A stretch of 48,796 bases of DNA, taken from NCBI GenBank assembly GCA_032249055.1, contig JAVVGP010000002.1:1-48796 (forward strand). Direction: 5' to 3'. This DNA comes from Thermoproteota archaeon. Lineage in GTDB: Archaea; Thermoproteota; Thermoprotei; Gearchaeales; Gearchaeaceae. Both the position numbers and the translations under genes were made by a program. The notes below the pieces were generated by a model, which saw only the letters and a program-made list of their open reading frames with translations, was not told where the DNA came from and made no database searches. Positions 20,598 through 47,003 of this stretch are shown piece after piece. Numbering within the stretch: the first letter of the stretch is position 1; each line of letters starts with the position of its first letter.

Positions 20598-22415
20598 TTA
20601 TTTAGAAATTCTAATTAAATATGAGTCCCTGTTATTAAAAAGTATATCATTATTGTTTTTGTATATCAAAAAATTTAAATAATTTGAAAACGATGCTGGA
20701 GATATATCGTTAGCCCATCTTTCAATAGTATAGGTACTTATAGCTATATAAGAATTGCTCATATTCATATCAAGCGATAATTTATAATAAGCTATTGAAG
20801 AAGGGAGAGTTCCATTAAAATGATAAGGCAAAATACTTGGGTCTATTGTTCCAAAAATTTTTGTATGAGATTTCATATAAAGTATGAATTTAGCTAAGGA
20901 AAATGATTGCTGAGTAGTGTACATTATTCCTTGTGATGGATAACTATATTTTGCAAAATAAGGAGAGTCATCTGTTAATAAATTAGATGAAAAGAAAGCA
21001 AAAACAATAAGAAGCAATAGCAAAGCAAACGTGGTTTTCCTCTTGAAAACAATAAAGGATCCAGCTAAAAAAGATACAGGTACTAATATGTAAAGTATTG
21101 CTATAGTTTGTTCCACTGCAGTACCAGAAAAAAGAACAATAAAATTATATGCTACAATAGTTAAGGCAGTCAAAGCAAGAAAATAACTTTTAAAGTTTCT
21201 TCCGTTTATAAAAGCATATAATAAACCTACTGTTCCTAGATATATCACTATAGAATACCATGCATGGGATAAAGTATAGAATGTTAAAGAATCTAAATTT
21301 GGATCAAAATAAGGAGTTGAAGGACTTTCTAGTTTCAAACTATATGCTGGATATATTAGACGGGGTAAAATCTCGGAAAAAAAAGGAAAAGCATGGAAAA
21401 ACAAATAGAAAATGATCAATCCAAAATAAATTATTGAATATGTTCTCAGGTACTTATTATAAGTAATTAAAACAAATGTCAAAACTAACATTACGATCGC
21501 AAAAATAATTGCTGCTGTAGGATGGAATAAAAACATGGTAATTGAACTTAAGACTAAAATTATTATGAATTTCCTATTTTCTTCAATCCTTATTAATGAG
21601 TAAAAAGAAATTATGAAAAAAATGAATGAAAAGGGATGCAGAGTATAGGAATTGAAAGATGTATAGCTATAAATCAAGCTAAAAACTATTGTTGATATCA
21701 ATGAAACTCTTATGTTATTTGAAATTCTATAAACAATAATATAAGCAAAAAATAAAGAAACACTAACTATTAGCGAATTGATTAACATATACATGAATGT
21801 TACTTTACCAAATGGGATTAGCCAAATTATTGAATTAAGAATATAATATAATGGGAAGTATGTATAACCACCTAAGTAATCAGGGACATGTGCTAAATTA
21901 TAAACCCTTACACTATTAAAGTAATGGTAATAAGGATCCCACCATGGTGGAACGCCGTTAATTAAATACAAGCTTATTCTTTGTACGAAATGTAGAATAA
22001 CTAGCTGTACTAATATAAGCAGTGCTATTTTCTTTGAAATTTTAAAAAATATAGCTTGAAAAGTAAGCAAGGCCATCGCTACTGTAATGAATATGTAAAA
22101 CTCTATTACTCTGTAAACATTGCTGATATAAATCGAGTAAATTGTTGCTGAGATAAAGAATGAAAAAATGATAGTTAAGGCAAAATTAAGTTTATCATTC
22201 TTAATATTAAATTCATTAAAGTTTGGTTTTTGAATTAAATATAAATATGTAGCTATTCCAAGAACAACGCCTAAAAAGTTCAGGGTTATAAAGTATCCTG
22301 TTACTGTAAATTTTATAAAAAGAGAAATAAGTAGAAAGATAAGTAGTATAATTGATAGAGGAAATAATATTTTAATAGTTCTTAAATTTATTATTTTTTC
22401 AAAAATAATACTCAT
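20598..22415 (-). CDS. polytopic membrane protein, possible GT-C-type glycosyltransferase or polymerase
   Basis: 605 aa and almost entirely hydrophobic helices. It has an early loop motif VPPWWDPYYHYFNSVRV and a ~110-aa C-terminal soluble tail. Confidence 0.4.
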   Translation of the reverse strand: MSIIFEKIINLRTIKILFPLSIILLIFLLISLFIKFTVTGYFITLNFLGVVLGIATYLYLIQKPNFNEFNIKNDKLNFALTIIFSFFISATIYSIYISNVYRVIEFYIFITVAMALLTFQAIFFKISKKIALLILVQLVILHFVQRISLYLINGVPPWWDPYYHYFNSVRVYNLAHVPDYLGGYTYFPLYYILNSIIWLIPFGKVTFMYMLINSLIVSVSLFFAYIIVYRISNNIRVSLISTIVFSLIYSYTSFNSYTLHPFSFIFFIISFYSLIRIEENRKFIIILVLSSITMFLFHPTAAIIFAIVMLVLTFVLITYNKYLRTYSIIYFGLIIFYLFFHAFPFFSEILPRLIYPAYSLKLESPSTPYFDPNLDSLTFYTLSHAWYSIVIYLGTVGLLYAFINGRNFKSYFLALTALTIVAYNFIVLFSGTAVEQTIAILYILVPVSFLAGSFIVFKRKTTFALLLLLIVFAFFSSNLLTDDSPYFAKYSYPSQGIMYTTQQSFSLAKFILYMKSHTKIFGTIDPSILPYHFNGTLPSSIAYYKLSLDMNMSNSYIAISTYTIERWANDISPASFSNYLNFLIYKNNNDILFNNRDSYLIRISK

Positions 22416-27753: not shown

Positions 27754-28448
27754 TATAAAAGTCTTAAATGTATATAAATCTTATCTTTTTGAACTTCTTC
27801 TTTAACTATTCTTACAGGAGTTTTTTTCATTGTTACTACTGTTAAAGCAGCTAAGCTAGCAGGTAAAGAACCTAAACATTTTGAAAATTGAGGTAGCTTT
27901 TCCTTCGTATTTGGTTTGGTTATTTCTATAATTATATTTTCAGCAGTTTCAACAGCTATAACTTTGGAACAAAATTCAGTCATATCGACAAGGACTTTTT
28001 CCAAAGCTTCACTCAAAGAGAAATCATAATTTAAAATATTCTTAACTATTGTACATCCTGGAGGATAAAATTTTATAACAGGTATATTCCTAACAAGCAA
28101 GAAAACATTTCTTTTATCGATTTCTTCAATAGGCAAACTCTCAATCGTTTTAATGGGTAAAATAACTGAAGCATAACCTTCATTTGGAGGGAGGTAAATA
28201 GCCTTAGATTCAATTTTAAGTTCTTCAAGAATAGCCTCTATAGTTAAAGCTGAACTTTCAATCAAAGATCTTATCGTTGCTGGCGGAGTCGGTTCTTCGG
28301 GAAGCATTATTGCTGCAATTCCTATAATTATTGCTCCTATTCCTATTGCTGTTAAAGGTATGTTTCCATAAAAAACATAAAAGAAAAATGAAACTATAAT
28401 ACCGAATATTATTAAGACCTTTCCAAATAACGAATAACTTTCTCTCAT
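27750..28448 (-). CDS. membrane-anchored hypothetical protein (232 aa)
   Basis: Two N-terminal TM helices, then a soluble domain with no motif I recognise. Translationally coupled on both sides. Confidence 0.5.
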   Translation of the reverse strand: MRESYSLFGKVLIIFGIIVSFFFYVFYGNIPLTAIGIGAIIIGIAAIMLPEEPTPPATIRSLIESSALTIEAILEELKIESKAIYLPPNEGYASVILPIKTIESLPIEEIDKRNVFLLVRNIPVIKFYPPGCTIVKNILNYDFSLSEALEKVLVDMTEFCSKVIAVETAENIIIEITKPNTKEKLPQFSKCLGSLPASLAALTVVTMKKTPVRIVKEEVQKDKIYIHLRLLY

Positions 28449-29047
28449 ATTTTTTCAGCTTGATTTAATAACTTTAAGTAAGGTAATTTTCTGAAAATTG
28501 ATATGATTGAAAAAATTAAAGTTGTAGAGATCAAAGCTACCAAAACTGGCTCAAGTCGAATGCCCCATGGTGTATAATTAAGAATAAAACCTTCTAAAGC
28601 TACAATTCCAATACTTAAAGCGATTGAAAGACTTAATCTTTCAATACCGTTTAATTCATCAGGTTTAGGAAAAATGCTCTCAATTAATACGTAACCTGGC
28701 AAAAATAGAATAAAAATTGAACCTAGAATATATCTGAAGTATAAAATAGGATATATCTGGGGCATTAAATATATAGTGTACAAAGTTATTAGACTAATTA
28801 CTAGAACACTCCAAAACCAAGAAGAATATCCTGATTTTAAATAACTAAAAAAATTTGTTGGAGGATTATAGTCAATTTTAGCTAACAGACCTTCATCTAT
28901 TAAATCATTTATTATTTTCAATACTTTACTCCTTTTTAAACCTGTTTTAATTCTAATTTGTTTAACAATTTCATTAACTGTCAACGTTTCTTTTTCCAAC
29001 AGTTCTAAAATCATTGATCTAACTTGTTTATCTGATACTTTTTGCAT
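28445..29047 (-). CDS. winged-helix DNA-binding-like domain fused to a DUF1616-type multi-TM module
   Basis: The N-terminal 60 aa, LELLEKETLTVNEIVKQIRIKTGLKRSKVLKIINDLIDEGLL, is wHTH-like. It is followed by 4-5 TM helices with FLPGYVLIESIFP...IERLSLSIALSIG, reminiscent of the membrane part of archaeal DUF1616 proteins. Confidence 0.45.
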   Translation of the reverse strand: MQKVSDKQVRSMILELLEKETLTVNEIVKQIRIKTGLKRSKVLKIINDLIDEGLLAKIDYNPPTNFFSYLKSGYSSWFWSVLVISLITLYTIYLMPQIYPILYFRYILGSIFILFLPGYVLIESIFPKPDELNGIERLSLSIALSIGIVALEGFILNYTPWGIRLEPVLVALISTTLIFSIISIFRKLPYLKLLNQAEKI

Positions 29048-29048
29048 C

Positions 29049-30062
29049 TTATTTAGTCACGTTTAAGTATAGTTGATTCCAAATTCCCATGTATTTAAAA
29101 TTATTTTGTGTAACCGAATAAGCCCAAAGCTCGAAGATTAGCTTAATATTTTCCCCTGTCATGTTTAATGCTAAGGTAATTTTCCTTATCTCAATTTGAT
29201 GATTAAAAAGAATGAAGCTATATACAGCTATTGGAGGAACATCTAAATAATTAGTTTGATTTACTATACTTGTAGCGTTACCAACTTTTATCAAGACTTG
29301 GTAATACATTATATGTCCTTCTTTATTTTCGACATAAAGATACAAAGTAAAGTTTTGTCCTAAGGTTACATTTTTAGGATAATCGCCAATTTTTCCATCA
29401 GGTCCAAGTATACCGAGTGATGAGAATGGATTTTTGTTTAGATCTGCTAAAAAATAATTCGAAACAAGAAATGCTCCTATTATTATTATTACTGTTAATG
29501 TAACAATCGTAATTTGCTCATCAATCTTATATGAACCTTCTTTATTCTCATTTCTTCTTTTATTAGATTTCAATTTAATTATTCTCCAATCTTTATGTGC
29601 TCTATACCAAAGCTCCCAATACAAGGATGGTAAGTATTTGTAAAGCATAAAGCCTATAATTACTAACATAACTATTTGAAATATGAAAAGAATCATGGAA
29701 TTCCTTTGGTTTATCATGGCTTCTTGTGCAATGCTAGGAACTTGATTCAAAACGTTTTCTGCAATTAAAAAAGCTTCATTATAATATTTTGATGCTAAAG
29801 TTGAGTTTATTTTTGAATAATAATTACCTAAATCTACTAGCTTAACTGCTTCATTAAGCTTGTTTGACAAATTTGTTATATTACCACCATTTTGTTCGGC
29901 ATGTAATAAAGCTTTATAAGCTTCTATAATTTTATTTTGGACCTCATCATAAGTAATTTGAGCATTTAAATACACAGAGTTATTTGATATAATAAGAATA
30001 GAAATAATTAAAGTAATTAGTAAATTTAATAATTTCTTTTTAAGATTATTTGGATAAATCAT
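29049..30062 (-). CDS. secreted/membrane protein with DUF1616-like C-terminal beta domain
   Basis: Signal/TM segment, helical region, two TM helices, then LGILGPDGKIGDYPKNVTLGQNFTLYLYVENKEGHIMYYQVLIKVGN, reminiscent of the extracellular part of DUF1616. First gene of the MoxR operon. Confidence 0.4.
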   Translation of the reverse strand: MIYPNNLKKKLLNLLITLIISILIISNNSVYLNAQITYDEVQNKIIEAYKALLHAEQNGGNITNLSNKLNEAVKLVDLGNYYSKINSTLASKYYNEAFLIAENVLNQVPSIAQEAMINQRNSMILFIFQIVMLVIIGFMLYKYLPSLYWELWYRAHKDWRIIKLKSNKRRNENKEGSYKIDEQITIVTLTVIIIIGAFLVSNYFLADLNKNPFSSLGILGPDGKIGDYPKNVTLGQNFTLYLYVENKEGHIMYYQVLIKVGNATSIVNQTNYLDVPPIAVYSFILFNHQIEIRKITLALNMTGENIKLIFELWAYSVTQNNFKYMGIWNQLYLNVTK

Positions 30063-30461: not shown

Positions 30462-30794
30462 TTATGAGAGATGTTCAGTAATTTTAGGCTGTGCTTTGAT
30501 TATGATACCTTCTTTGAGTATTTTTGAGAGAATTATTGGATTTGTTTGGTTTAAGAGCACAATATCTATATGATCTTCGTTGATCTGTAGAGTTTTTGCT
30601 ATCTGGGTTACAATATATCCAATTTCTAGCAAATCTTCTTTTTTTAATTTTAGGGCTATATCTATGTCATGGACGCTGAACTTATTTTTTGCTATGGAAC
30701 CAAATAATATTGCTGTTTCAACACTTTCAAATCTTTCAAATAACCTTTTTAATTTAGGTAATACGTAATCCAGTATAAGCTTGTTCTTAATCAT
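30462..30794 (-). CDS. MntA-type minimal nucleotidyltransferase (antitoxin-like)
   Basis: ILFGSIAKNKFSVHDIDIAL fits the GSxxxGx(5-7)SDxD-type pol-beta NT motif. 110 aa, directly upstream of the DUF86-like remnant. Confidence 0.7.
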   Translation of the reverse strand: MIKNKLILDYVLPKLKRLFERFESVETAILFGSIAKNKFSVHDIDIALKLKKEDLLEIGYIVTQIAKTLQINEDHIDIVLLNQTNPIILSKILKEGIIIKAQPKITEHLS

Positions 30795-30832: not shown

Positions 30833-31174
30833 TTATCTTTTTATATTCGAATATGTTAATCCTAACCAAAAGATATAATTAGTATCTTTTAACCAATCTT
30901 TTATTTTTGGTATCATTATTACTGTTTTGATTTTTAATAACGCTTCTGCAACTTCTTTTCCTTTCTTCATTATTTTTTCTTTAAAAGAATTTAATTTCTT
31001 CATTATTGATATTACTGTTTCGATGATCTCTTTGTTTATTATCTTTTTAATTTTTGATAATTTCATGCAAGCAATGTAAAATGCTTTATCAATTGCTGAA
31101 AGATTATTCCATAATCCTTTTCTTAAGCATGATCTATAAAATCTTGATAGATCTGAAAATGATAAACTATGCAT
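30833..31174 (-). CDS. conserved hypothetical 113-aa protein, copy A
   Basis: MHSLSFSDLSRFYRSCLRKGLWNNLSAIDKAFYIACMKL... By my manual alignment it shows 15 mismatches in 342 nt against ORF 40744..41085, with both reading frames intact. Confidence 0.6.
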   Translation of the reverse strand: MHSLSFSDLSRFYRSCLRKGLWNNLSAIDKAFYIACMKLSKIKKIINKEIIETVISIMKKLNSFKEKIMKKGKEVAEALLKIKTVIMIPKIKDWLKDTNYIFWLGLTYSNIKR

Positions 31175-31744: not shown

Positions 31745-33154
31745 TTATGCTGCGCTACTATATTTATATAAGGCTAGATTGCCTCGTTGTGATATTTTTT
31801 TAAATCCGAGTGAGTAAGCTTCATAATCATTCCAATATAATAAATATAGGTTATGTTTTGGTACATTTTCAAATGCTTGTTGTAGACTAGGAAACATGTT
31901 ATATGTTCCGCCTCCACCAAATCCTATGATTTGTGCGTTTGTGTAATATAATGCCCATCCTGCGAAGTCTCCATATACTAATAGTATTATGTCTTTTTCG
32001 TTTTTTATTTGGTTTAGTAATGTTATTGTTGGTTCAATATCGTATAATGGTATTGATGTTTGGACCATACTAGTTGGCATCTTGCCTGGCATTTCATAAT
32101 ATGGGGGGATTATTTTTAGTCCTATGAATGTGAATGTTGATAAATTCATCAAAAGTATTATTGCTATCGTTATTGTTTGATTTTTACTAATTTTCATTTT
32201 TATTTTCCATACTGTATTTGTTGCGTATATTGCTAACGGTATTGCTAGTAATAGTATAATTCTCCATGGCTCTACCATTCCAAGTAGAAATGATGGTGAA
32301 ATTATTGTTGATAATGAGCCTAACAGTATTAATATTAACCAAGTAGTCATTACTTTATCTTTGAAGTAACCTATTATAGAAAGCGGGATAATAGGTAAGT
32401 AAAGTTTCATGATCATTATGATGTTTTGTGATTCATACATTATTGATTGAAATGTTGGGTATGTAAATATTGGGATCTGGTATAATTTGAGTAAGTTATC
32501 TATGTTTAAGTATTTGTATATGAAAAGTGTGAATGCTATAAATAGGATTGCTAGGAAGATTAGACCATGTTTGTTTTTAATATTAGTTAATGCTAGGATT
32601 AGTAATAATGATATTAGTATTACGCCTGTTAATTGGTGTGCTAAAATTGTTAGCGTTGTTAATATTATGAATGTTATTGTAATATGGGGTTTTTTTGTTA
32701 TTGATTTTATTATTGATACTGTCAATGTTAGAAAAACTAATCCGAGCATCTGGTCATGCAAATCCCAAGATATGCGTAGGTTAGCTATTGAAAGAGTCGT
32801 TATTATGGATGCGAGTAATGATTTTGTATTGTTCCATTGTAAGTAGTTTTTTGTTAATAGATATATTGATAATCCGAAGAATCCGTAAATAATTATTGGT
32901 AAAATTTTCATTGCTATTACTACATCGATTCCTATTGCGTATAATCCTCCTAATATAACAGTTTGGAACAATCTGTATGGCGGCCATAAACCTTCTTGTG
33001 CATGATATTTTGCATATGCAAAATATAATGGCGTATCGTATCCTATTGGATATGGGAATTGTATTTCTGGTATTGCTCTTATTGTTGCAGGAATTATAAA
33101 TGATAATATTATTGCGTGTTTTTTTAGATTTATTGTAACTTTTAGAGATTTCAT
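31745..33154 (-). CDS. GT-C-like polytopic membrane protein, short paralogue (469 aa)
   Basis: Hydrophobic throughout. It has an early loop PYPIGYDTPLYFAYAKYH. After the last TM comes DIILLVYGDFAGWALYY, which parallels the post-TM motif of the three longer paralogues upstream. 4-nt overlap with the upstream gene. Confidence 0.45.
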   Translation of the reverse strand: MKSLKVTINLKKHAIILSFIIPATIRAIPEIQFPYPIGYDTPLYFAYAKYHAQEGLWPPYRLFQTVILGGLYAIGIDVVIAMKILPIIIYGFFGLSIYLLTKNYLQWNNTKSLLASIITTLSIANLRISWDLHDQMLGLVFLTLTVSIIKSITKKPHITITFIILTTLTILAHQLTGVILISLLLILALTNIKNKHGLIFLAILFIAFTLFIYKYLNIDNLLKLYQIPIFTYPTFQSIMYESQNIIMIMKLYLPIIPLSIIGYFKDKVMTTWLILILLGSLSTIISPSFLLGMVEPWRIILLLAIPLAIYATNTVWKIKMKISKNQTITIAIILLMNLSTFTFIGLKIIPPYYEMPGKMPTSMVQTSIPLYDIEPTITLLNQIKNEKDIILLVYGDFAGWALYYTNAQIIGFGGGGTYNMFPSLQQAFENVPKHNLYLLYWNDYEAYSLGFKKISQRGNLALYKYSSAA

Positions 33155-35394
33155 GTTCTAGTATCTAATATTATTACTTTATTGTTCATGTATGCTATTT
33201 TGAATTGTTTGATCAAATGTTGATATTCTGGCCATGTTTGTATAGTTGCCGTTGGTATTCTTGGTATTACTATATAAGTTATATTGTTTTGTTTTATAAT
33301 TTGCCTTGTGTCTAATATTGACAATTCATTTTGAGTTGCGTCTTTTTGTGGATTTTGTCTTTTAATGTTTATTATTATGTTATTTTGTGTGCATGTTAGT
33401 CTAATTTGTCGATTATCTGGCGTATTTGTTACTGTTTCTGCATTTGTTGTAATAATTATTGTATCTATATCTGTATAAATTTTGGTATCTTGTGCTATTT
33501 CTATTAAGTTTACTTGTCTTTGTGGCGATATTTCTATTATGAGTGTTGTATTTTTGATTTGAAGATTTGTTTTTATTATGTAGTTTATAGTTAATGTAGG
33601 CATTGTACTTATTGTTATCGTTTTATTTATCATGACATCTTGGTTATTATATATTGTTTGAATTACTGCTATGCTTTTTTGCGCTTTTAATGTTGAGGTT
33701 GCTGTGAAGTTCTTCGTCATTAATATAGCAGTTGTAAAATCTTTTGTTGATGTTTTGTTCGTTGCAATGATTAGTTTTTGGTCATTTACGATTAATGTTT
33801 CATGATATTTCCCTTGTTTCCAGATACTTATTATTGGTGTAAAGGACTGGTTATAAGGGTTTTGATCTTGTATTCTAAAATATCCGTTTCTAATGTCATA
33901 TGTTGACTTTAATATTGCTGATGCTATATAATATCTTTCTAATTGTCCTTCTAGGAAAAAGAATCGGGGGTCAGCGTACCTATATACCCTCCTTTGCGAA
34001 TATCCTTCTATCCATTTCCCTATCATCTCATCTGCTATGAAAGTTTCGTTTGGTAATGTGTTTGTTTTTATCCAGTTTAGTGCCGCAAGCTTTTCATGAT
34101 CTCCATATGGATCATGTATTGGTACCCATGAGTTTACATTATTTATTGTTTGCAATCCTAGCGTAAATGTGTTTATTGATGCAGTTAGTGTGAGTATTAT
34201 AATTACTATTCCCTCTATTGTTTTATATTTCATTATTTTCTTTATAGCTTTGGATGGATGGATTGGTATATCTAGCATTGTAAGAGCTGTTGCTAGTAGA
34301 AGCGGGATTGGTTGTATTGAAAAGAAGAATATTCTGTTGTAATCGATTGCTATGCCTAACAAATATCCTTGTGTAGCTATTATTGGAAATAGGGACCAAC
34401 TAATTATTAGTGTTAAGTGTTGCGGTTTTATTAATTTATACGTTCCTAGCGATAGTAAGATTATTAATATGATCATAATTATTAGTATAATTAGGGAGAT
34501 AAACGGTAATGGGGATTTAAATACCCATGGTATTGTAACTATTGGATTAAATCTTAATTCATAGTATGCTGCTTCATTATATGTTAAGAATTGTGAAGGA
34601 TATGCGAGTGTGTATCTATATATTATGAATATGGTTAATGATATTATCAGCGAAGTAAGTATTGGTTTTGTTATTTCTTTTAGTGCGATTTTGTTTTTGT
34701 AAAGTATTAGCAAGAGTAACCATAGTAATGTTACTCCTAAATATATGGTGTAGGTTAAGTGGTGCGTTAATGGTAATAATATGCTTAATATTACTAGGAT
34801 AATTTTGTCTTTGGTTATTGGATTTTCTATTATTTTTATTATCATATAAAATGTAAATCCTAACAATATTAACCCTAATAAATTGGGATATCCTCCCCAT
34901 CCTAACATTTCTGAATATATTGGCATTACTGATGCATAAGCTGTTATTAATGCTGGTATCGGTTTTTTAGTTATTTTCTTTGCTATTAAAAATATAGGTA
35001 ATGGCTGTAATGAAAAAAATACTATTCCAAGTATTTTTAGTGTTGTTATTGGATCTAGAAAAATTTCTAGTAGCAATATTATAAAGAATGGTAATGGTGG
35101 GTACTGCCACGCTCCTATATTCCACATTGGATAAAGTCCTTGTTCTACTGTTGGATTGTTTACACCAAATGCTTTTTCTATTGTTGATTTGATTGCGTTT
35201 GCATACATTAACCATTCTCCTGGATCACTCCACCATGGCAAACTTCGTTGTGAAAATATTATTGTTACATAAGCCATAGGTATTAGTATTGATAAGGATA
35301 ATAATACAAGTTCTATTTTTCCTGAAGTCTTCTGATTAATAAAGTTCCATGCTTTTGTTATTTTTTCATCTAAAACGTTTATTTTACTGTTCAT
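33151..35394 (-). CDS. AglB/STT3-like-architecture GT-C membrane protein (747 aa), no WWDYG motif
   Basis: More than 10 TM helices, then a ~330-aa Thr/Asn/Ile/Gln-rich soluble domain. Motifs are SLPWWSDPGEW (first loop), SEMLGWGGYPNLLG and ALNWIKTNTLPNETFIADEMIGKWIEGY just after the last TM. Confidence 0.5.
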   Translation of the reverse strand: MNSKINVLDEKITKAWNFINQKTSGKIELVLLSLSILIPMAYVTIIFSQRSLPWWSDPGEWLMYANAIKSTIEKAFGVNNPTVEQGLYPMWNIGAWQYPPLPFFIILLLEIFLDPITTLKILGIVFFSLQPLPIFLIAKKITKKPIPALITAYASVMPIYSEMLGWGGYPNLLGLILLGFTFYMIIKIIENPITKDKIILVILSILLPLTHHLTYTIYLGVTLLWLLLLILYKNKIALKEITKPILTSLIISLTIFIIYRYTLAYPSQFLTYNEAAYYELRFNPIVTIPWVFKSPLPFISLIILIIMIILIILLSLGTYKLIKPQHLTLIISWSLFPIIATQGYLLGIAIDYNRIFFFSIQPIPLLLATALTMLDIPIHPSKAIKKIMKYKTIEGIVIIILTLTASINTFTLGLQTINNVNSWVPIHDPYGDHEKLAALNWIKTNTLPNETFIADEMIGKWIEGYSQRRVYRYADPRFFFLEGQLERYYIASAILKSTYDIRNGYFRIQDQNPYNQSFTPIISIWKQGKYHETLIVNDQKLIIATNKTSTKDFTTAILMTKNFTATSTLKAQKSIAVIQTIYNNQDVMINKTITISTMPTLTINYIIKTNLQIKNTTLIIEISPQRQVNLIEIAQDTKIYTDIDTIIITTNAETVTNTPDNRQIRLTCTQNNIIINIKRQNPQKDATQNELSILDTRQIIKQNNITYIVIPRIPTATIQTWPEYQHLIKQFKIAYMNNKVIILDTRT

Positions 35395-35399
35395 ATTAA

Positions 35400-37535
35400 T
35401 TATGTTGTTTGCTTCTTTACTTTGAAGATTATTATTAAATTGTTCTCAAATACTGGTATATATTTATCATTTTTTAGGAATTTTACATAATCTTGTACTG
35501 ACTTTGATAATGCTATGTAATCAATATTATATTTTTTGATTATTTCATCTACTGTATAAGCCCATAGGTGATCATTCCACCAACTTTTTTTTGCGGTTAT
35601 GAACGTCATACTGAGCTCTGCTTTAACTGTATTATTTGTTGGCGTGAATGTGTATAATACTCGAAGTTGCCCCCATTTTGGATCTGATCCTACCGTATAG
35701 TTCTTAGCGTTTGTTTCAATTTCAATTATTTTTTCATCTATGATTAGTCTAAGTTTATTTGAATAATACGTGTAATCTTTCAATTTTGATTCAAAGGGTA
35801 TCCATATTGGTATTTTTGTTTCTTGTAGTGTTGCATTTATCGTTGGTATTATTATGTAATTTATATTTACTGTTTTAGAATCTTTTGCGAGCCCTATTGT
35901 TTTTATTATTTTGAGAGATTTTGAATTATATGTTATTGATATTGATGCAGACGTTGGTGTTTTATTTATCCATGTTATGTTTGATATCGTTGCTTTATAT
36001 GGTGATTCAATCCATGTATTGTTAGCATATATAAATGATGTTTCTACTGTGCCATCTACTAGATATATGGCTTTTGTGTAGTCTGGTCCTGTTGATTGTT
36101 CTATCCATGGTGTTTTGTCTGTTTCATATGGTATTCCGTCTAATATTCTTAGATATTCATTTCTCATTTCTATGTTATATCCGCTAAGAATTAAGCTTGC
36201 TGCTTCATACCTTTCTAATTCTCCTATCATGAATATTTGAAATGGAGGTAATTGTAATAATGTTCTTCTTTCCGCATATCCTTCTATCCATCTTCCTAAA
36301 GTTTCATCTGCTACAAATATTGCGTTTGGCGAAGTATTTGTTTTTATCCAGTTTAGTGCTTCTAATCTTTGGTCTGAAGCATATGTATAATCTGTAATGT
36401 AATGATAATATTCATTTACTTTATATACTGTTATTACTCCAGTTAAAATGTTAATCATAACTGTAAGTAGCAAGAGTGATGCGACTATTATTTGGGGATT
36501 CAGGTTTTGTGTAAGTGTTTTGGAGTCATTCTTTTCTTTTAATATCGCTATGGTTATTGAGCTTAGTATTATTATCGCTGGTATTGAAAAAATAGGGAAT
36601 CTTCTCGGGTCTAATGCTATTCCTAATATGTATGACTGTGTGAAAAGAAATGGAAAAAATATCCAAACTAGTAATATTATTAATTCTTCTTTTTTGTTAA
36701 GGTAGTATAGTCCTAGTGAACCTATTGTTGCTGTTAGAAAAAGAAGCGATGCTGCTAATGGATCTTTAAATATCCACCAAAAAGCATCCATATCAAATGG
36801 TCTGTTTAATTGAGATGCATAATTAAATATTATATATTGAAATGGTCCTGCCAAGATTCTCCAAATTATGAAGGTAATTACAGATATTGTAATTGGAATT
36901 AATATTTTAAGTTGTGATAATTGAGCGCGTTTTCTGATGATACTTAAAAATGTTAATAATATAATTATTGAACCTATTACTGCGTAGACTATTAATGTTA
37001 AATGATGTGTTATTGAGAGTAGTGATGTAAAGATTGATGCCATTAATATGTTTTTGTTATTCTTTTCTCCTTTCATTATTTTATAAAGGTAGTATAATGA
37101 TAAGTTAAGAAACATTATTCCTAATAAATTCGGGTATCCTCCCCATCCGTACATTTCTGAAAAAGCTGGATGGAATGCTGTTAGCCATACTGCTATTATT
37201 CCTGCTTTGTAACTATTTGTTATTTCTTTTGCCAGTGGATATACTGTGAGGGGTAATAATGATATTAAAGTTATGCCTAGCATTTTTAATGATAACAATG
37301 CATTATGTGTTAGAATGATAAATATAGCCAATATTATATTAAAAAATGGAGGATATTGAAGTACTGTTTGATCCCAAAGTGGATATGTATTACCTAGTAA
37401 TGCGTTAGCATTTTTTAGCCATATTGCAGGATCATTAATTGGAGGAAAAGGATCTGGTCCAAATATTAATAGATATACAACGAAGTTTATAAACGAGGGA
37501 AGTATTAATAAAATGATTTGATTTTTTCTTTTCAC
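35400..37535 (-). CDS. AglB/STT3-like-architecture GT-C membrane protein (711 aa), paralogue
   Basis: PPINDPAIWLKNAN, SEMYGWGGYPNLLG and ALNWIKTNTSPNAIFVADETLGRWIEGY are clearly paralogous to ORF 33151..35394. GTG start in a GTGA overlap. Confidence 0.5.
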   Translation of the reverse strand: MKRKNQIILLILPSFINFVVYLLIFGPDPFPPINDPAIWLKNANALLGNTYPLWDQTVLQYPPFFNIILAIFIILTHNALLSLKMLGITLISLLPLTVYPLAKEITNSYKAGIIAVWLTAFHPAFSEMYGWGGYPNLLGIMFLNLSLYYLYKIMKGEKNNKNILMASIFTSLLSITHHLTLIVYAVIGSIIILLTFLSIIRKRAQLSQLKILIPITISVITFIIWRILAGPFQYIIFNYASQLNRPFDMDAFWWIFKDPLAASLLFLTATIGSLGLYYLNKKEELIILLVWIFFPFLFTQSYILGIALDPRRFPIFSIPAIIILSSITIAILKEKNDSKTLTQNLNPQIIVASLLLLTVMINILTGVITVYKVNEYYHYITDYTYASDQRLEALNWIKTNTSPNAIFVADETLGRWIEGYAERRTLLQLPPFQIFMIGELERYEAASLILSGYNIEMRNEYLRILDGIPYETDKTPWIEQSTGPDYTKAIYLVDGTVETSFIYANNTWIESPYKATISNITWINKTPTSASISITYNSKSLKIIKTIGLAKDSKTVNINYIIIPTINATLQETKIPIWIPFESKLKDYTYYSNKLRLIIDEKIIEIETNAKNYTVGSDPKWGQLRVLYTFTPTNNTVKAELSMTFITAKKSWWNDHLWAYTVDEIIKKYNIDYIALSKSVQDYVKFLKNDKYIPVFENNLIIIFKVKKQTT

Positions 37536-39559
37536 TGTATTATTACTTTATAGATCGTTAGATAATCGTTTTGGTACAGCGATTTAAATATTTCATAATA
37601 GAGACCGAATTTATCCATGTTTTCTTTTTTAACTACTGTTGGTATTATAGCATAGCTTATTTTATATTTAGCTAATAATTCTTTTATGTCTGCTGCTATA
37701 ACTTTGCTATTCATCCAATTGATTGGTTTGGGATTCAGTATTTCTACCGTTACTTTAACTCTTATACTGTTTTGTATTGGCACGAATGTTGCTAATACTC
37801 TTGGCTGCGTCCATGTTTCATCTGGACCAAATGTTAATCTCACTAGAGTACCATTAAAAGTTATTTTATATTCGCCTATATCTGTTGAGAAATGAAATGT
37901 ATTTCCTATTACCTGTGTGAATCCAAGTTTTCTTTCCCATGGTACCCACATTTTTAGTGTAAATGAGTTTATTATTGAAGTTGTTGAAGATATGTAATAT
38001 TCTATTGTAGCTTTAGGGTCTGTTGTAAGTGTTAATTGTTTAATTATTGTCACCCCTCCTTCAAGCGAAAATATGTGTTGAATTGTTGCTATATTCTCTG
38101 TACGTATAATCCATGTTGTATTAGTACCCTTGTACTGGTAAAAGTCTGGACTTAATAGTTTGTTATTATATGTATATGATACACGTGCGTGATTTTCATC
38201 AATATATATGAATTCGGAATAATTATTTCCGTCTGATGATGCTATTGTTGGCAATCTTTGTGGCGCTTTACTTCCCCAATCTCTTAGTCTTATGAATTGA
38301 TTTCTAAGTTCATAGTTAGCATTGAGTATCGTATCTGCATCATAACTTTTGATAAAATTGTTTATGTCGTTTGGATTCGTAGGTAAATTTGTTATTACTG
38401 TTCTTTTAGTATATGATTGTATCCAACTACTTAAAGGATATTCTGCAAGGATTACAGCATCTTTTGGTGTATTTTCATTTATCCATGCTAATGCGTTAAG
38501 TAAGTCAATATCACCGTATCTATCAATATATATTGAATAGTTCTGGATCGTTTTATTCACTACATTATAGGTTATAAACGTGTTTGAGATTATAAGGAAT
38601 GCTATAAGTATGAGCGCAAAGAGTTTTGCTAAGTCTATTTCTACTACTTCCTCATTTTCAACCCGTTTGCTTAATGCTAAACCTTTTATTATTTCAGGAA
38701 GCAATACTGATGTTGATATCGCTAACGGATAGAAAAGGTAAATTATAGCCAGTTGCGGACTTATTATAACTATAGAAATTATTGATGCTAGTAACCATGA
38801 TGCAATTACAAGAAAATCTTCTTTTGAGCGTTTTAATATGAGATAGAGTCCAAAAATTCCGCTTATAAAACCTATTATAATTGTTTGGTAGATATCTGTT
38901 GGAATGTTAATAGTTTGCTGTTTATATAATAAAGTGATTGGTAGTGAAATATATGATGCTAATGGATACATAAAATTAAGTTTGATCTTTTTATTCATTA
39001 TAATGTTTATTATTACAATCAACGAAGATGCGATAACTAAAATAGACATTGCGTTTGAATCAGCTAAGGCAGTTAAAAGTGAAAATATTGCTATAATTAT
39101 TGATTTTTTTGCTACATTAAGTTTAGTAAATCTTGTAATGAATATGATTGAAACTGAAAGGAATAATAATCCTTGTAGTTGTGCATAATTAGAAGACATT
39201 ATTAACCATGAATGTAATGGATAAATTATAACTAATATGCCTGCAATAAATGATGCAATTTTATTATTTGTTATTTTATATGTTATGTAAAAAGCAGGAA
39301 GAGGTAGCAAGATAAAAGTAAGAAGTGCAGAGCTCATTATAGCATAAGATAAGTTTGCGAAAAATGGAGAAAATATCCATGCAATATATGGGAAAAGTAT
39401 TATTGTATTTGGTTTCCCTTTAATAATTTCATTTAGAAGTGTAAGCCATTTTATATCATCAGGTCTTGTCGCTATTATTAGTCCTAATGTTGATACATAA
39501 AATACCAATATAGCTAGGGGTATAAGTAAAAATATTAGAATTATGTTACTAGTTTTCAA
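37532..39559 (-). CDS. AglB/STT3-like-architecture GT-C membrane protein (675 aa), divergent paralogue
   Basis: Same layout as the two paralogues. ALAWINENTPKDAVILAEYPLSSWIQSY follows the last TM, and RPDDIKWL sits in the first loop. TTG start. Confidence 0.45.
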   Translation of the reverse strand: MKTSNIILIFLLIPLAILVFYVSTLGLIIATRPDDIKWLTLLNEIIKGKPNTIILFPYIAWIFSPFFANLSYAIMSSALLTFILLPLPAFYITYKITNNKIASFIAGILVIIYPLHSWLIMSSNYAQLQGLLFLSVSIIFITRFTKLNVAKKSIIIAIFSLLTALADSNAMSILVIASSLIVIINIIMNKKIKLNFMYPLASYISLPITLLYKQQTINIPTDIYQTIIIGFISGIFGLYLILKRSKEDFLVIASWLLASIISIVIISPQLAIIYLFYPLAISTSVLLPEIIKGLALSKRVENEEVVEIDLAKLFALILIAFLIISNTFITYNVVNKTIQNYSIYIDRYGDIDLLNALAWINENTPKDAVILAEYPLSSWIQSYTKRTVITNLPTNPNDINNFIKSYDADTILNANYELRNQFIRLRDWGSKAPQRLPTIASSDGNNYSEFIYIDENHARVSYTYNNKLLSPDFYQYKGTNTTWIIRTENIATIQHIFSLEGGVTIIKQLTLTTDPKATIEYYISSTTSIINSFTLKMWVPWERKLGFTQVIGNTFHFSTDIGEYKITFNGTLVRLTFGPDETWTQPRVLATFVPIQNSIRVKVTVEILNPKPINWMNSKVIAADIKELLAKYKISYAIIPTVVKKENMDKFGLYYEIFKSLYQNDYLTIYKVIIQ

Positions 39560-39584: not shown

Positions 39585-40733
39585 TTAAATTAAATTTCTA
39601 TAAACCCTATCATACTCTTCCGCAATATTATTCCAATCATATCTTTTTATAAATTCATAACCATTTTGTTGCAATTTTAACCATAAATTTCTATCATTCA
39701 TTATCTGTAATATTGCTTCTGCAAGATGATAAGGTGAAAGTTTTGCTACTAAACCGCTTTTACTTTCTTTTATCAAATCTGATGCTCCATTTCCTTCAAC
39801 AGAGACAACTACTTGAGGTGTTCCTGCAGCCATTGCTTCAAGTGTTGTAATGCTTTGCCCCTCCCTTATTGATGGAAGAACATATACATATGCACTTTTT
39901 AGCCTTTTAACTAATTCCTCATCACTCACATCGCCAAGTATAGTAATACAATTTTGAAGCCCCTTCTTTTTAATGTATTCCTCATATTTAGCTTTCATAG
40001 GACCATCTCCAATGATTTCTAAATGAACATCATTAATGTGCTTTTTTACTATAGGTATTGCATCTATTAATAGCTCAATCTTTTTATGCCAATTTAATCT
40101 GCCTATGTATACTATTTTATTATGCTTTCTTTCTGATTTAATTCTATTAAAAAGCTCCAAATCAACGCCATTGGGTATTACGACAACTTTGCTTTTATCC
40201 ATCTTTAATAAAGATATTAAACGTAATGCCGTTGTATTGCTTACCGCTATACCAATATTTGGCATCTTTACATAGATTTTTTCCAAAATGATTCCTAATG
40301 GAACATGAAAGATTGTCGGAGAATACCAATACCAATGAGAATACCAAACTTCATGAAATGTAACGCTTAACGGAATTTTGTTCATTCTGGTATGTATCCA
40401 CGAACTTATAACAGGAAATATTGGACAATGATTTGCCTCTATGATTTGATAATCCTTATTAGAAGTCTTTTTAATAGCCCATGCTGCATAGAGTAGAACT
40501 TGTGATATAGAACGAAATCCATCTTTAGTTATGTAATTTGTTAAAGGAATTTCAGTTCTATATACATTAATGCCATGAATATTCTCATATGTTGGCCATT
40601 CTTTATTTAATCTAACTGTGTATAAGTCAATCTCATAATTTCTCTTTACTAACCTTCTCAATACTTCATAATATCTTTTTGCCGATCCTCCTTTAAATGG
40701 ATAAAACGTTTCAGTTATAACTGCAATCTTCAT
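39585..40733 (-). CDS. GT4-family glycosyltransferase
   Basis: FYPFKGGSAKRYYEVLRRLVKRNYEIDLYT; IPNGVDLELFN; EGQSITTLEAMAAGTPQVV (EX7E). Confidence 0.85.
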   Translation of the reverse strand: MKIAVITETFYPFKGGSAKRYYEVLRRLVKRNYEIDLYTVRLNKEWPTYENIHGINVYRTEIPLTNYITKDGFRSISQVLLYAAWAIKKTSNKDYQIIEANHCPIFPVISSWIHTRMNKIPLSVTFHEVWYSHWYWYSPTIFHVPLGIILEKIYVKMPNIGIAVSNTTALRLISLLKMDKSKVVVIPNGVDLELFNRIKSERKHNKIVYIGRLNWHKKIELLIDAIPIVKKHINDVHLEIIGDGPMKAKYEEYIKKKGLQNCITILGDVSDEELVKRLKSAYVYVLPSIREGQSITTLEAMAAGTPQVVVSVEGNGASDLIKESKSGLVAKLSPYHLAEAILQIMNDRNLWLKLQQNGYEFIKRYDWNNIAEEYDRVYRNLI

Positions 40734-40743
40734 CTCATGCTTG

Positions 40744-41085
40744 CTATCTTTTTAAATTCGAATATGTTAATCCTAACCAAAAGATATAATTAGGATCTTT
40801 TAACCAATCTTTTATTTTTGGTATCATTATTGCTGTTTTGCTTTTCAATAACACTTCTGAAACTTCTTTTCCTTTCTTCATTATTTTTTCTTTAAAGGAA
40901 TTTAATTTCTTCATTATTGATATTACTGTTTCGATGATCTCTTTGTTTATTATCTTTTTAATTTTTGATAATTTCATGCAAGCAATGTAAAATGCTTTAT
41001 CAATTGCTGAAAGATTATTCCATGATCCTTTTCTTAAGCATAATCTATAAAATCTTGATAAATCTGAAAATGATAAAGCAAGCAT
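40744..41085 (-). CDS. conserved hypothetical 113-aa protein, copy B
   Basis: MLALSFSDLSRFYRLCLRKGSWNNLSAIDKAFYIACMKL... 10 of 113 residues differ from copy A. Only 10 nt upstream of the GT4 gene. Confidence 0.6.
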   Translation of the reverse strand: MLALSFSDLSRFYRLCLRKGSWNNLSAIDKAFYIACMKLSKIKKIINKEIIETVISIMKKLNSFKEKIMKKGKEVSEVLLKSKTAIMIPKIKDWLKDPNYIFWLGLTYSNLKR

Positions 41086-41116: not shown

Positions 41117-41159
41117 CTTTTAAACGGGGATTTTTGCAATTTTGAAACTCCATACCGAG

Positions 41160-44937: not shown

Positions 44938-46122
44938 TCATTCGAAGATTTTCTTAATGGCTTTCTTTAATTTATTTTCTGAAAAATATTCATCCAGAAC
45001 TTTAAAATTCCTCAATTTAAACTCTTTTAATGAATTTTTTTCTTTGGAAATTTTTATTAACAAGGATGCAATTTCTTGATGGTTAGCTTCTTCAAATACA
45101 AAACCAATATTTTTTTCTTTTGAAAACTTTGCTAAATATCCTTTTGATATTATTAACATTGGTTTCCCAAATCCTAAATATTCTACAAATTTTATTGGAA
45201 AGGATGCATCTGGAAACATTGAACTTTTTAAAGGAAGCATAAAAATATCTGAATTGCACATTTCTTTTAAATATTCTTTATAAGGTAAAGGCTTATTTTC
45301 AATTTTTACATTCTTTAAATCATATTCTTTTATTAATTTGCTTAGAATGCTGTACATTTCTCCTTGGCCTCTTATGATAAACTCTATCTTTTCGTTATTC
45401 AAAATTTTAGCGACTTCAATTATTGAAATTAGATCATAATTTTTACCAAGATTTCCTGAATAAACGATCCTTAATTTATCCTTACTAACATTTTCTTCGC
45501 AATCATGTTTTTTTGCTATATTTGGCAAAATTTCAATTTTTTTAGGTTCAATTTTATATTCTTTTGCAATAAAATCCTTCATCGAATCTGTTAATACAGT
45601 TACTTTATCACTTAACAAGTAGACAATTTTAGCCAAAAGTCTGCCTATTTTATAAAATGTACTATTATATCTTGCATAACCAGTGTTTACTAAAGCCTCT
45701 GGCCAAAGATCTGTAATGTCGCTTATCAATTTGCATTTATGAAAAATTTTAAATATTATTCCAGAAATGGAAGAAAATATTCTTTGACTAAAAGCCCAAA
45801 CGTAATCTGCTTTCTTTAAAATAAACAATGGAAAGAGAGAAGTGAAAGTAAATGTAATATATAATATTAATCTTCTATGTAAACCTTCATGCTTTAAAGG
45901 AGGAATGTAAACTCTTATTATTTTAATATTTTTTCCTTTCTCTATTATAATAGGTTTCGATTTGTAACCCTTTCTATCTCCATATGGATAATGCGGTAAA
46001 GATGTTATTAAGGTTACCTCATACCCGAGATCTATTAAAACTTTTATACAATTCTTTAATCTAATTACATCTCCATTTAAATCTGGAAGCCAATATTGTG
46101 ATATTATGCATATCTTTTTCAT
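44938..46122 (-). CDS. GT-B (GT4-like) glycosyltransferase
   Basis: ISQYWLPDLNGDVIRLKNCIKVLIDLGYEVTLIT; LRIVYSGNLGKNYD; FPIKFVEYLGFGKPMLI. Confidence 0.75.
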   Translation of the reverse strand: MKKICIISQYWLPDLNGDVIRLKNCIKVLIDLGYEVTLITSLPHYPYGDRKGYKSKPIIIEKGKNIKIIRVYIPPLKHEGLHRRLILYITFTFTSLFPLFILKKADYVWAFSQRIFSSISGIIFKIFHKCKLISDITDLWPEALVNTGYARYNSTFYKIGRLLAKIVYLLSDKVTVLTDSMKDFIAKEYKIEPKKIEILPNIAKKHDCEENVSKDKLRIVYSGNLGKNYDLISIIEVAKILNNEKIEFIIRGQGEMYSILSKLIKEYDLKNVKIENKPLPYKEYLKEMCNSDIFMLPLKSSMFPDASFPIKFVEYLGFGKPMLIISKGYLAKFSKEKNIGFVFEEANHQEIASLLIKISKEKNSLKEFKLRNFKVLDEYFSENKLKKAIKKIFE

Positions 46123-47003
46123 TTAGATTTTGATATTTCTTCCCTTATTAAAGAAACAAGTATAAATATTAACAAACCAGTCGTAGCTAAAATTATTGAA
46201 ATTATCAAACTCATTCCAGATATTATAAGCAAATTTGTTGGTAATTGTCTAGTAGTATTAAAGTAATCCATAGCTAATATTCCAGCAATTATGGAAATTA
46301 GTAAGAAAATAAAGGATGGAATTCCAAACAAAATTAAAGGATGTCTTATAGCATGTCTTTTTAAAACTGTAAGCAAAACATCTAAGCCATGTAAAATAGG
46401 ATTTGTTTTTGAAGGCTTTGGAACGTCATATTTAACAGAAATAGGAATTTCTATTACTTTTAAGTTATTATCTAAAGCTTTTAGCAAAATTTCAGAATCA
46501 GCTCCATAACCCATTTCTGATGGAATTAAGAGCTTTAATACTTCTTTTTTATAAGCTCTAAAACCGCATTGGGAATCTGTATATTTTTTGTTTGTAACAA
46601 TGTTTAATATTTTATTACCAATAACTCTATAACCTGGTACTTCCTTGCTTTTTGAATTTAAAAATCTTGAACCTATTACAACATCAGCATCATTTTCTGT
46701 TAAAGTATTTATAAAAAAAGGTATTAGATCTGGATCATGCTGCATATCAGCATCTAAAGTTATTACAACATCAGCATCTTCTTTCAAAGCTCTTTTAAAT
46801 AATTCAGCTAAACAATATCCTTTGCCATAATTTCTTTCATTTTTTATTACTTCAGCTCCAAGACTTTTGGCTATTTCATATGTCATATCTTGAGAGCCAT
46901 CATCACAAACTATTATTTTATCAACATATTTTTTCGCTTTTAATATGACTTTTGCTATTGTATTTTCTTCGTTATAAGCAGGAATTAAAGCAATAACTTT
47001 CAT
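46119..47003 (-). CDS. GT2-family polyprenyl/dolichyl-phosphate sugar synthase-like glycosyltransferase with C-terminal TM helices
   Basis: VIALIPAYNEENTIAKVI, IIVCDDGSQDMT and ITLDADMQHDP (DxD), followed by two C-terminal hydrophobic helices as in Dpm1/GtrB/ArnC-like enzymes. Confidence 0.8.
   Translation of the reverse strand: MKVIALIPAYNEENTIAKVILKAKKYVDKIIVCDDGSQDMTYEIAKSLGAEVIKNERNYGKGYCLAELFKRALKEDADVVITLDADMQHDPDLIPFFINTLTENDADVVIGSRFLNSKSKEVPGYRVIGNKILNIVTNKKYTDSQCGFRAYKKEVLKLLIPSEMGYGADSEILLKALDNNLKVIEIPISVKYDVPKPSKTNPILHGLDVLLTVLKRHAIRHPLILFGIPSFIFLLISIIAGILAMDYFNTTRQLPTNLLIISGMSLIISIILATTGLLIFILVSLIREEISKSK

Follow-up and report, generated by a model that had tools for sequence, protein, structure and literature searches.

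A motif-divergent family of predicted STT3-like GT-C glycosyltransferases organised as conserved multi-paralogue modules in archaea

AglB is, to our knowledge, the only well-studied GT-C glycosyltransferase of archaea, and the enzymes for archaeal O-glycosylation and for the extracytoplasmic elaboration of glycans are, as far as we know, largely unknown. AglB, STT3 and PglB are the closest described relatives of the proteins reported here, which are encoded by four tandem open reading frames (ORFs) in a 48,796-nt stretch of contig JAVVGP010000002.1 (assembly GCA_032249055.1, positions 1 to 48,796) from a Thermoproteota archaeon, referred to below as the window. The four ORFs are named A, B, C and D in order of transcription, and residue numbers such as D35 follow the numbering of B. 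Oligosaccharyltransferases (OSTs) are defined by 13 transmembrane (TM) helices with a globular domain at the C-terminus, two DXD motifs, a TIXE/SVSE motif in external loop 5 (EL5), and WWDYG and DK/MI in the C-terminal domain (PMC8342417). The first DXD motif provides an Asp in external loop 1 for binding of metal and acceptor, and the second (D-x-D, D-x-E or D-H-H), located in EL2, coordinates the divalent cation. In these enzymes, the DXD motifs and the Glu of TIXE hold the metal, and WWDYG together with DK/MI forms the pocket for the Ser/Thr at position +2 (PMC8342417). A second described arrangement is the three-component system, which combines a polyprenyl-phosphate-sugar synthase, a flippase and a GT-C enzyme, often with a carbohydrate-binding module (PMC11127046). 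A literature search for an STT3-like archaeal family lacking WWDYG found nothing relevant.

The four-gene array, its fold and family assignment

The array occupies the minus strand and runs from A (37532..39559, 675 aa, TTG start) through B (35400..37535, 711 aa, GTG start) and C (33151..35394, 747 aa, ATG start) to D (31745..33154, 469 aa, ATG start). In agreement with the initial annotation, which had described a single translationally coupled array of these four lengths, the genes lie head to tail, with a GTGA overlap at the A/B junction, a gap of 5 nt between B and C, and an ATGA overlap at the C/D junction. Downstream of D lies an AT-rich spacer of 570 nt. Homologues at 98% and about 80–84% identity were found in independent metagenomes, which indicates that the four ORFs are real genes. 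Aligned from end to end, B and C are 32% identical (E 1e-65) and A and B 25% identical (E 2e-37), and the pairwise similarity of D to C is weak (E 4e-4). When the D family was compared with a 38-sequence family alignment that includes A, B and C, hhalign gave a probability of 99% (E 1.9e-18) over a region that comprises the membrane domain and the beginning of the external domain. This profile-profile match, together with the missing large C-terminal domain, identifies D as a genuine truncated paralogue, without a beta-sandwich, of the full-length paralogues A, B and C.

The peptide motifs that had been quoted for these proteins are all present in the window ORFs. They include PDDIKW, NDPAIW and SDPGEW in the first loop of the three long proteins, as well as ALNWIKTNT..F(V/I)ADE(T/M)(L/I)G(R/K)WIEGY, AEYPLSSWIQSY, YGDFAGWALYY and SEM(Y/L)GWGGYPNLLG. 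The last of these had also been described as conserved at the nucleotide level. This conservation is real: the DNA encoding SEMYGWGGYPNLLG in B (37111..37161, minus strand) pairs with the C copy at 34865–34915 at 86% nucleotide identity. The second of the two ranges first reported for it was displaced by about 10–20 nt. A further stretch of nucleotide-level conservation, not listed in the initial annotation, encodes ALNWIKTNT..VADETLGRWIEGY in B (36265..36359, minus strand), corresponds to the WWDYG position of STT3, and pairs with the C copy at 33989–34083 at 81% nucleotide identity.

An AlphaFold2 model of B, built on the 38-sequence alignment, reached a pLDDT of 92.3 and a pTM of 0.90. Compared with solved structures by Foldseek, it matched, in this order, STT3, PglB, DPY19, A. 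fulgidus AglB, ArnT, AftA and ALG9. The E values were 5.5e-9 to 1e-6 for yeast and human STT3, 6.5e-8 for PglB (TM-score 0.49–0.50) and 2e-6 for DPY19, and the STT3/AglB/PglB group as a whole ranged from 5.5e-9 to 1e-5 (TM-score 0.44–0.54). The model of D (pLDDT 85, pTM 0.88) gave STT3 as the top match, followed by AftA, ArnT and AftD. Across the B and D models, the Foldseek probability was 1.00 for STT3, PglB, DPY19, AglB, ArnT, AftA and AftD.

At the sequence level, a single-sequence phmmer search of B against the PDB returned nothing meaningful, and STT3 was reached through profiles only. The 38-sequence profile reached a fungal STT3 at E 0.007. A deeper profile of 98 sequences, taken from an exhaustive representative search, matched human STT3B (E 2.2e-13), C. 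thermophilum STT3 (1.8e-10), yeast STT3 (7e-6) and TMEM260 (0.0067) in the PDB; it reached no PMT, ArnT or DPY19 chain there, and the D-family profile had no match in the same database. The profile and structure matches to STT3 indicate that the family is related to the OST catalytic subunit, distantly but significantly. On these comparisons and models, A to D are predicted to be integral-membrane glycosyltransferases of the GT-C_A type, forming a remote and uncurated branch of the STT3/AglB/PglB lineage. The GT-C fold with OST-like architecture that had been proposed for them is borne out, and the searches led to GT-C and STT3 relatives instead of a well-characterised non-glycosyltransferase family.

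The family databases are consistent with the earlier suggestion of an uncharacterised subfamily. None of the four proteins matched NCBIfam, and Pfam yielded sub-threshold matches alone (DUF6798, Dpy19 and DUF6541, with EpsG for D), of which those to DUF6798 and Dpy19 fall exactly on the alpha/beta unit that follows the last TM helix (A residues 314–396). Among the 38 aligned sequences, weak matches were observed to PMT_2 (PF13231; 19 of 38, best E 3e-12), PTPS_related (PF10131; 14 of 38), DUF6798 (9 of 38) and Dpy19 (3 of 38). No model spans the full architecture, and the Pfam STT3 model matched none of the 38 sequences. An EpsG/Wzy polymerase identity was considered for D and rejected: the EpsG match (E 0.0085) scored 15.7 bits against a cut-off of 30.1 and occurred in 1 of 35 relatives, and Foldseek led to STT3, AftA and ArnT.

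Membership in PMT/GT39 was also rejected, with no PMT or PMT_2 match on the four window proteins at E<=1, a loop 1 that reads N-D-P or S-D-P, and no beta-trefoil. A related explanation is that the proteins act as PMT-, TMEM260- or DPY19-like protein glycosyltransferases, transferring single sugars from a dolichyl-phosphate-hexose (Dol-P-hexose) to Ser/Thr (or Trp) of secreted or S-layer proteins, which would make the family a set of candidates for the unidentified archaeal O-glycosylation enzymes. The PMT_2 and Dpy19 matches among the relatives, the weak TMEM260 profile match and the DPY19 Foldseek match speak for it, as does the name 'glycosyltransferase family 39' that NCBI gives to some members. 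Additionally, PMTs are described as acting as heterodimers of paralogues (PMC12705809). However, the family has neither the loop-1 DE motif of PMT nor a MIR or TPR domain, its extra domain is a supersandwich of the carbohydrate-enzyme type, a glycan acceptor is suggested by its close association with a GT4 and with a large glycan cluster, and the Pfam matches on the window proteins all lie below the curated cut-offs. We consider this explanation quite unlikely.

Public names of family members are unreliable, being generic or wrong, and 'GT39 family protein' rests on weak PMT_2 similarity. A protein from a JGI metagenome (P0032), 32% identical to B and 747 aa long, which is the length of C, is publicly named '7-cyano-7-deazaguanine synthase in queuosine biosynthesis'. 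It is probably a C counterpart. C itself shows a chance QueC match (E 0.019, residues 570–673, in the beta-sandwich); the name of P0032 probably stems from a chance match of the same kind and hence looks misannotated.

Topology and motif comparison with oligosaccharyltransferases

The AlphaFold2 helices and the positive-inside pattern of Lys/Arg, used here in place of a dedicated predictor, suggest about 11 TM helices with an N-in, C-out orientation. A hydropathy script, applied to tail lengths only, gave a soluble tail of ~330–340 aa in A–C and of ~120 aa in D. These values, together with the first-loop motifs, fit the layout first proposed for the three long ORFs, with more than 10 TM helices, an acidic residue in the first loop and a large soluble C-terminal domain. 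In the model of B, the last TM helix is followed by a beta-alpha-beta unit, in the slot that holds WWDYG in STT3, by a beta-sandwich of ~190 residues that splits this STT3-like alpha/beta core, and by alpha/beta structure at the C-terminus. The architecture of C is the same. In A, a divergent GT-C membrane domain precedes an alpha/beta unit with AEYPLSSW and a beta-supersandwich, and D combines the GT-C membrane domain with a small alpha/beta domain. Foldseek matched the sandwich of B to GH38 C-terminal, GH65 N-terminal and YidC P1 domains, which we take to be galactose-mutarotase-like supersandwiches, and the Pfam model Glyco_hydro_38C matched the C-terminal domain weakly. The domain inserted in the alpha/beta unit of A–C, and absent from D, is thus predicted to be a beta-supersandwich, a domain type of carbohydrate-active enzymes.

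No WWDYG-like motif (W[WFYH]D[YWFN]G) was found in any ORF of at least 200 aa in the window or in 84 related loci, so that the absence of WWDYG noted in the initial annotation does not reflect a missed copy in these ORFs. In the HMMER alignment, the family sequence 'vadeslGwWIeGyaeRrtl' lies opposite 'MSWWDYGYQIAGMANRTTL' of STT3B, and D-E-s/T-l-G of the family lies opposite W-W-D-Y-G of STT3B, C. thermophilum STT3 (CtSTT3) and yeast STT3. The ADExxGxW of the family accordingly occupies the WWDYG slot, as had been supposed for ADE..GxWIEGY. Over the wider segment, the family reads A-L-N-W-I-k-x-N-T...v-A-D-E-s-l-G-r-W-I-E-G-y-a-x-R and STT3 reads A-Y-x-W-L-R-Q-N-T...M-S-W-W-D-Y-G-Y-Q-I-A-G-M-A-N-R, and the Ser/Thr pocket is gone.

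The second DXD motif is also missing from the family. Where STT3 has S-R-S-V-A-G-S-(Y/F)-D-N-E, the family has S-E-M-x-G-W-G-G-Y-P-N, with the metal-binding Asp replaced by Pro and the Glu position deleted; a conserved E127 is found 8 residues upstream of the substituting Pro, and T-H-H one loop later. Furthermore, 'ASVSEH' of STT3B, which contains the S-V-S-E-H of STT3, stands opposite 'WIFKD' (W-I-F-K-D) of the family, in which the residue after K is variable and no acid is conserved. For DK/MI, the D-Y-V-K-F-L of B follows a strand whose alignment with yeast 'SYEILKEHDVDYVLV' is non-significant, and the family consensus there is R/K-F alone. The Arg of V-M-V-R-L-M in STT3 is kept as R312 in L-D-x-x-R. 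The first-loop Asp (D35) is invariant in the 38-sequence alignment and conserved to at least 90% in the 98-sequence alignment; its equivalence to the first DXD of OSTs is based on position and fold, with no direct alignment. Positions conserved to at least 90% across the 98 members are D35, P63, W131, H177, R312, W396, W416, R423 and P476.

The loss of the WWDYG pocket, the second DXD and TIXE/SVSE implies that the family cannot read the N-X-S/T sequon as STT3 does and that its members are not to be filed as AglB/STT3. With only the first-loop Asp and one Arg kept among the OST motifs, the sequences describe a divergent STT3-like GT-C family, not AglB.

Paralogue clades, the conserved module and the surrounding cluster

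A scan of the genome collection with the pattern EMxxWGGY[PA][ND] identified 164 loci encoding relatives. The 80 loci inspected among them were nearly all from Bathyarchaeia, Nitrososphaeria, Geothermarchaeales and Thermoprotei, with one from Nanoarchaeia. An exhaustive hidden Markov model (HMM) search yielded 469 50%-identity clusters at E<=1e-30 and 1795 at E<=1e-10. Counted over the stretch of contig fetched per locus, the window and the 84 loci carried four family genes in 8 sequences, three in 15, two in 48 and one in 14, so that 71 of the 85 carry 2–4 family genes. In a neighbour-joining tree, gene position corresponds to clade: A, B, C and D each form their own clade with the window copy and its counterparts, which indicates that the paralogues are old and non-redundant. 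The A clade comprises the window copy and the first-position genes of L001–L008, and the C clade comprises third-position genes and single-copy Nitrososphaerales genes. Two-gene loci contribute two further large clades, one for their first and one for their second genes, with the first-gene clade nearly all from Bathyarchaeia.

Common to B, C and the first-gene clade are the first-loop Asp, E-M-x-x-W-G-G-Y-P-N, T-H-x-L-(T/S), T-Q...D-x-x-R and x-D-x-x-x-G-(R/W)-W. In B and C, the T-H-x-L-(T/S) motif contains H-H and the last unit takes the form ADExxGRW; in the first-gene clade, this unit is S-D-A-L-Y-G-W-W. The conserved residues of B are D35, E127, W131-G-G-Y, H177, R312, W396, W416 and R423, and those invariant in the D family are R26, P29, G38, D40, R127, D131, R298 and M363. 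In A, the first-loop Asp is retained (xDIxWL; 10 of 11 sequences of the clade), and E-M..WGG, HH and the TQ..D..R loop are missing; its conserved positions number 13 in the membrane part versus 66 in the external/C-terminal domain. Such losses, with conservation mainly in the external domain, would suit the explanation that some or all copies have no catalytic activity and serve as scaffolds or as transport or assembly factors, with A especially organising other enzymes instead of transferring sugar. However, B, C and D keep the strongly conserved first-loop Asp and basic residues, B and C also keep His177, and A itself retains the Asp in nearly all of its sequences. We regard the scaffold explanation as very improbable.

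Directly upstream of A lies a gene for a GT4 glycosyltransferase (39585..40733, minus strand, 382 aa; Pfam Glycos_transf_1 E 1e-35), the first gene of a five-gene module. The window and the Bathyarchaeia loci L002–L007 have the same order, GT4-A-B-C-D, with lengths in Bathyarchaeia of, for example, GT4(382)-A(670)-B(714)-C(722)-D(468); the order varies in L001, where it is A-B-C-GT4-D. The orthologue of the window GT4 shows 58% identity in Bathyarchaeia L002 and 48% in L001. Neighbour counts were made over 65 loci of at least 12 kb, and relatives of this GT4 (phmmer E<=1e-20) were observed near family genes in 23 of them. The co-conserved unit includes the upstream GT4 and thus reaches beyond the array of the initial annotation.

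The GT4-A-B-C-D block is bracketed by a 300-nt direct repeat, whose copies at 40745–41044 and 30834–31133 share 97% nucleotide identity. The corresponding 113-aa ORFs, upstream at 40744..41085 and downstream at 30833..31174 (both minus strand), share 91% amino-acid identity. Homology of this flanking ORF to the 123- and 143-aa ORFs upstream of the module in L001 and L002 was considered and is unsupported (BLASTP E 2.1). A close relative of the window, L088, is 97.3% identical over window positions 41124–31520 and wholly different upstream of 41124, where a Polysacc_synt (Wzx-type) flippase gene takes the place of the window's carbamoyltransferase. This synteny break just upstream of the repeat suggests that the module acts as a cassette-like unit within a glycan locus of variable content, and the block looks like an exchangeable cassette with its breakpoint at the repeat.

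The window as a whole is AT-rich (about 26–38% G+C over 2-kb windows, mostly 26–32%), has nearly all genes on the minus strand, and forms one large glycan-synthesis cluster with at least ten GT4 and two GT2 genes. Other cluster genes encode two epimerase/dehydratases, a carbamoyltransferase, an asparagine-synthase-like amidotransferase, two methyltransferases, an acetyltransferase-like hexapeptide protein, an oxidoreductase and a SIS protein. A candidate donor supplier is a GT2 of the polyprenyl-phosphate-sugar synthase type (46119..47003, minus strand, 294 aa; Pfam Glycos_transf_2). Its best solved relatives are the P. furiosus dolichyl-phosphate-mannose (Dol-P-Man) synthase (5mlz, E 2.3e-17), followed by ArnC and GtrB, and its hydrophobic C-terminal tail, read from the translation, looks like two TM helices.

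In L001–L004, a GT2 resembling dolichyl-phosphate-mannose synthase (DPMS) lies 276–348 nt after D (best solved relative 5mlz, E 3e-27), with a small conserved ORF in between. The GT2 of L001 and L002 is 239–242 aa long and has no TM helices of its own; the small ORF (ORF and GT2 together at 13701–14662 in L001 and 11681–12764 in L002) is 78–99 aa long, is 42% identical between the loci and shows two TM helices by eye. This arrangement recalls eukaryotic DPM1 with its DPM2/DPM3 membrane anchor.

Within the window, a polytopic membrane protein of 605 aa (20598..22415, minus strand) has no Pfam match, and hhalign related it to the 98-sequence alignment with a probability of 96.6% (E 6.5e-10). By this profile comparison, it is a fifth, distant relative of the GT-C family. 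Its VPPWWDPYYH (PPWWDP) aligns with the first-loop PPGxD of the family, not with the OST WWDYG, and it carries ~130 extra N-terminal residues.

A DUF1616 protein, apparently split in two ORFs, is found at 28445–29047 and 29049–30062 (minus strand), the first with a winged-helix-like N-terminus by eye. In 39 of 77 loci, a DUF1616-N-like membrane ORF is found no more than 6 kb away from family genes, and in the literature found DUF1616 is only listed as a glycoprotein. DUF1616 was rejected as a functional partner: in Bathyarchaeia it invariably belongs to a divergent MtrH-like operon, at a constant distance of ~1.5 kb upstream, and it is absent from the other four-gene loci. The association may possibly reflect lineage synteny, with an uncertain functional link.

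The glycan cluster is interrupted at several points. A nucleotidyltransferase/HEPN pair (15774–16597), a solitary nucleotidyltransferase gene (30462–30794) and two archaeal ATPase_2 genes (14670–15701 and 16679–17710) were observed within it. The 14–18 kb stretch has a G+C fraction of 0.34–0.38 versus about 0.27–0.30, which points to DNA of inserted or foreign origin. Between the two halves of the cluster, 22480–25632 (minus strand) encodes a MoxR-type AAA ATPase, DUF58, DUF4350 and then a 629-aa protein with CarboxypepD_reg-like repeats.

Proposed mechanism and comparison with known systems

The reading that we prefer, and to which we give about an even chance, is that the paralogues are extracytoplasmic GT-Cs, acting stepwise or as a complex, that use dolichyl-phosphate-sugar donors to elaborate a surface glycan. 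They would act at the outer face of the membrane on dolichyl-monophosphate-linked sugars supplied by the cluster's DPMS/GtrB-type GT2 enzymes, and each paralogue would be responsible for its own residue or linkage. They would extend a surface glycan whose lipid-linked core is made by the co-conserved GT4 together with the remaining GT4/GT2 enzymes. The beta-sandwich may hold this glycan acceptor, and A may be mainly an acceptor-binding subunit, possibly in a hetero-oligomer. The action could be stepwise, as in Emb/Aft and ALG3/9/12, or hetero-oligomeric, as in EmbA/B and Pmt1/2. The multi-paralogue GT-C sets Emb/Aft and ALG3/9/12 act stepwise from monophosphate donors. A further precedent is offered by the three-component systems (PMC11127046). 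With its monophosphate donors and stepwise action, this reading differs somewhat from the functional guess of the initial annotation, in which the proteins would possibly transfer or polymerise the GT4-built glycan onto protein, lipid or S-layer. In favour of the reading stand the fold and the STT3 homology, the conservation of D35, H177 and R312, the lost OST motifs, the position-specific paralogues with their conserved gene order, the GT2 genes resembling Dol-P-Man synthase, and the external domain with its similarity to domains of carbohydrate-active enzymes.

Several observations weigh against this reading. The nearest relatives by both sequence and structure are oligosaccharyltransferases, which use pyrophosphate-linked oligosaccharides, and the L088 module follows a Wzx-type flippase gene, which would fit an oligosaccharide donor. 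A DPMS-like GT2 was observed in just 8 of the 65 loci and is thus rejected as a universal neighbour, no GtrA-type or MATE flippase was recognised in the window, and A is without most of the shared membrane-domain motifs.

In another explanation, the proteins would be non-canonical oligosaccharyltransferases, ligases or polymerases that move a dolichyl-pyrophosphate-oligosaccharide (Dol-PP-oligosaccharide), built by the surrounding GT4/GT2 enzymes and flipped by a Wzx-type transporter, en bloc to a non-sequon acceptor, such as Ser/Thr, a lipid, an S-layer residue or a growing chain. STT3 and PglB are the best structural and profile matches, the GT4 genes of the window (at least ten) are as expected of a lipid-linked oligosaccharide pathway, no recognisable Wzy, WaaL or AglB is found in the window, and the Wzx-type gene stands just upstream of the L088 module. 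Against this, the known en bloc transferases that are not STT3 (PglL and WaaL) belong to a different fold class. One transferase would suffice, yet 2–4 position-specific paralogues are conserved, and at the aligned positions the family has none of the three motif groups through which OSTs bind the metal/pyrophosphate and the sequon (PMC8342417 for the motif roles). We judge en bloc transfer to be possible but doubtful. A more far-reaching proposal, which we hold to be unlikely, is that the family represents a second, sequon-independent glycan-transfer machinery of Thermoproteota, derived from the OST lineage and working as an obligate hetero-oligomer of 2–4 paralogous STT3-like subunits that would attach glycans to a non-Asn acceptor or polymerise them there, for example in O-glycosylation or as an envelope-polysaccharide ligase.

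The family would show the re-use of the oligosaccharyltransferase scaffold for other chemistry. Its Bathyarchaeia, Nitrososphaeria and Thermoprotei carriers are abundant and mostly uncultured, with poorly known cell envelopes. The GT4-A-B-C-D module provides a compact, testable gene set, and its position-specific paralogues are suited to the study of hetero-oligomeric or assembly-line GT-C action.

Compared with STT3/AglB/PglB (CAZy GT66, Pfam STT3), the family has in common an N-in polytopic GT-C_A membrane domain, a first-loop Asp, an aligned Arg and the post-TM alpha/beta unit, in which the frame 'W-I/L-x-x-N-T ... G-x-x-I-x-G-x-x-x-R' aligns residue for residue. Additionally, D resembles the short AglB-S layout. 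Unlike these enzymes, the family has (A/S)D(E)xxG(R/W)W in place of WWDYG and YPN in place of YDNE, no conserved TIXE/SVSE, a predicted ~11 rather than 13 TM helices, and a ~190-aa supersandwich inserted in the core domain, and it comes as 2–4 tandem position-specific paralogues co-conserved with GT4.

Several paralogous GT-Cs are likewise present in mycobacterial Emb/Aft and in the eukaryotic ALG3/9/12 and ALG6/8/10 sets, and AftA and AftD are among the Foldseek matches. Each GT-C of the Emb/Aft and ALG sets uses a lipid-monophosphate donor to add a single residue or linkage; C-terminal carbohydrate-binding domains are present in Emb and AftD, and EmbA and EmbB form a heterodimer. The present family differs from these sets in having no detectable sequence relationship beyond the fold, different extra domains and a different, archaeal dolichol chemistry.

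The archaeal Dol-P-Man mannosyltransferase AglS may be a comparable case, as are the three-component systems. With these systems (GtrB/GtrA/Gtr*, ArnC/ArnT and GT136), the locus shares a GT-C that would act outside the membrane and a DPMS/GtrB-type GT2 in the cluster, and some of their GT-Cs likewise carry an extra carbohydrate-binding domain (PMC11127046). Unlike them, it encodes four GT-Cs where they have one, and the GT2 is adjacent in a minority of loci; a GtrA-like or MATE flippase was not recognised in the window. The fold and general role are unsurprising in a glycan cluster; what is new is a motif-divergent STT3-like family organised as conserved multi-paralogue modules.

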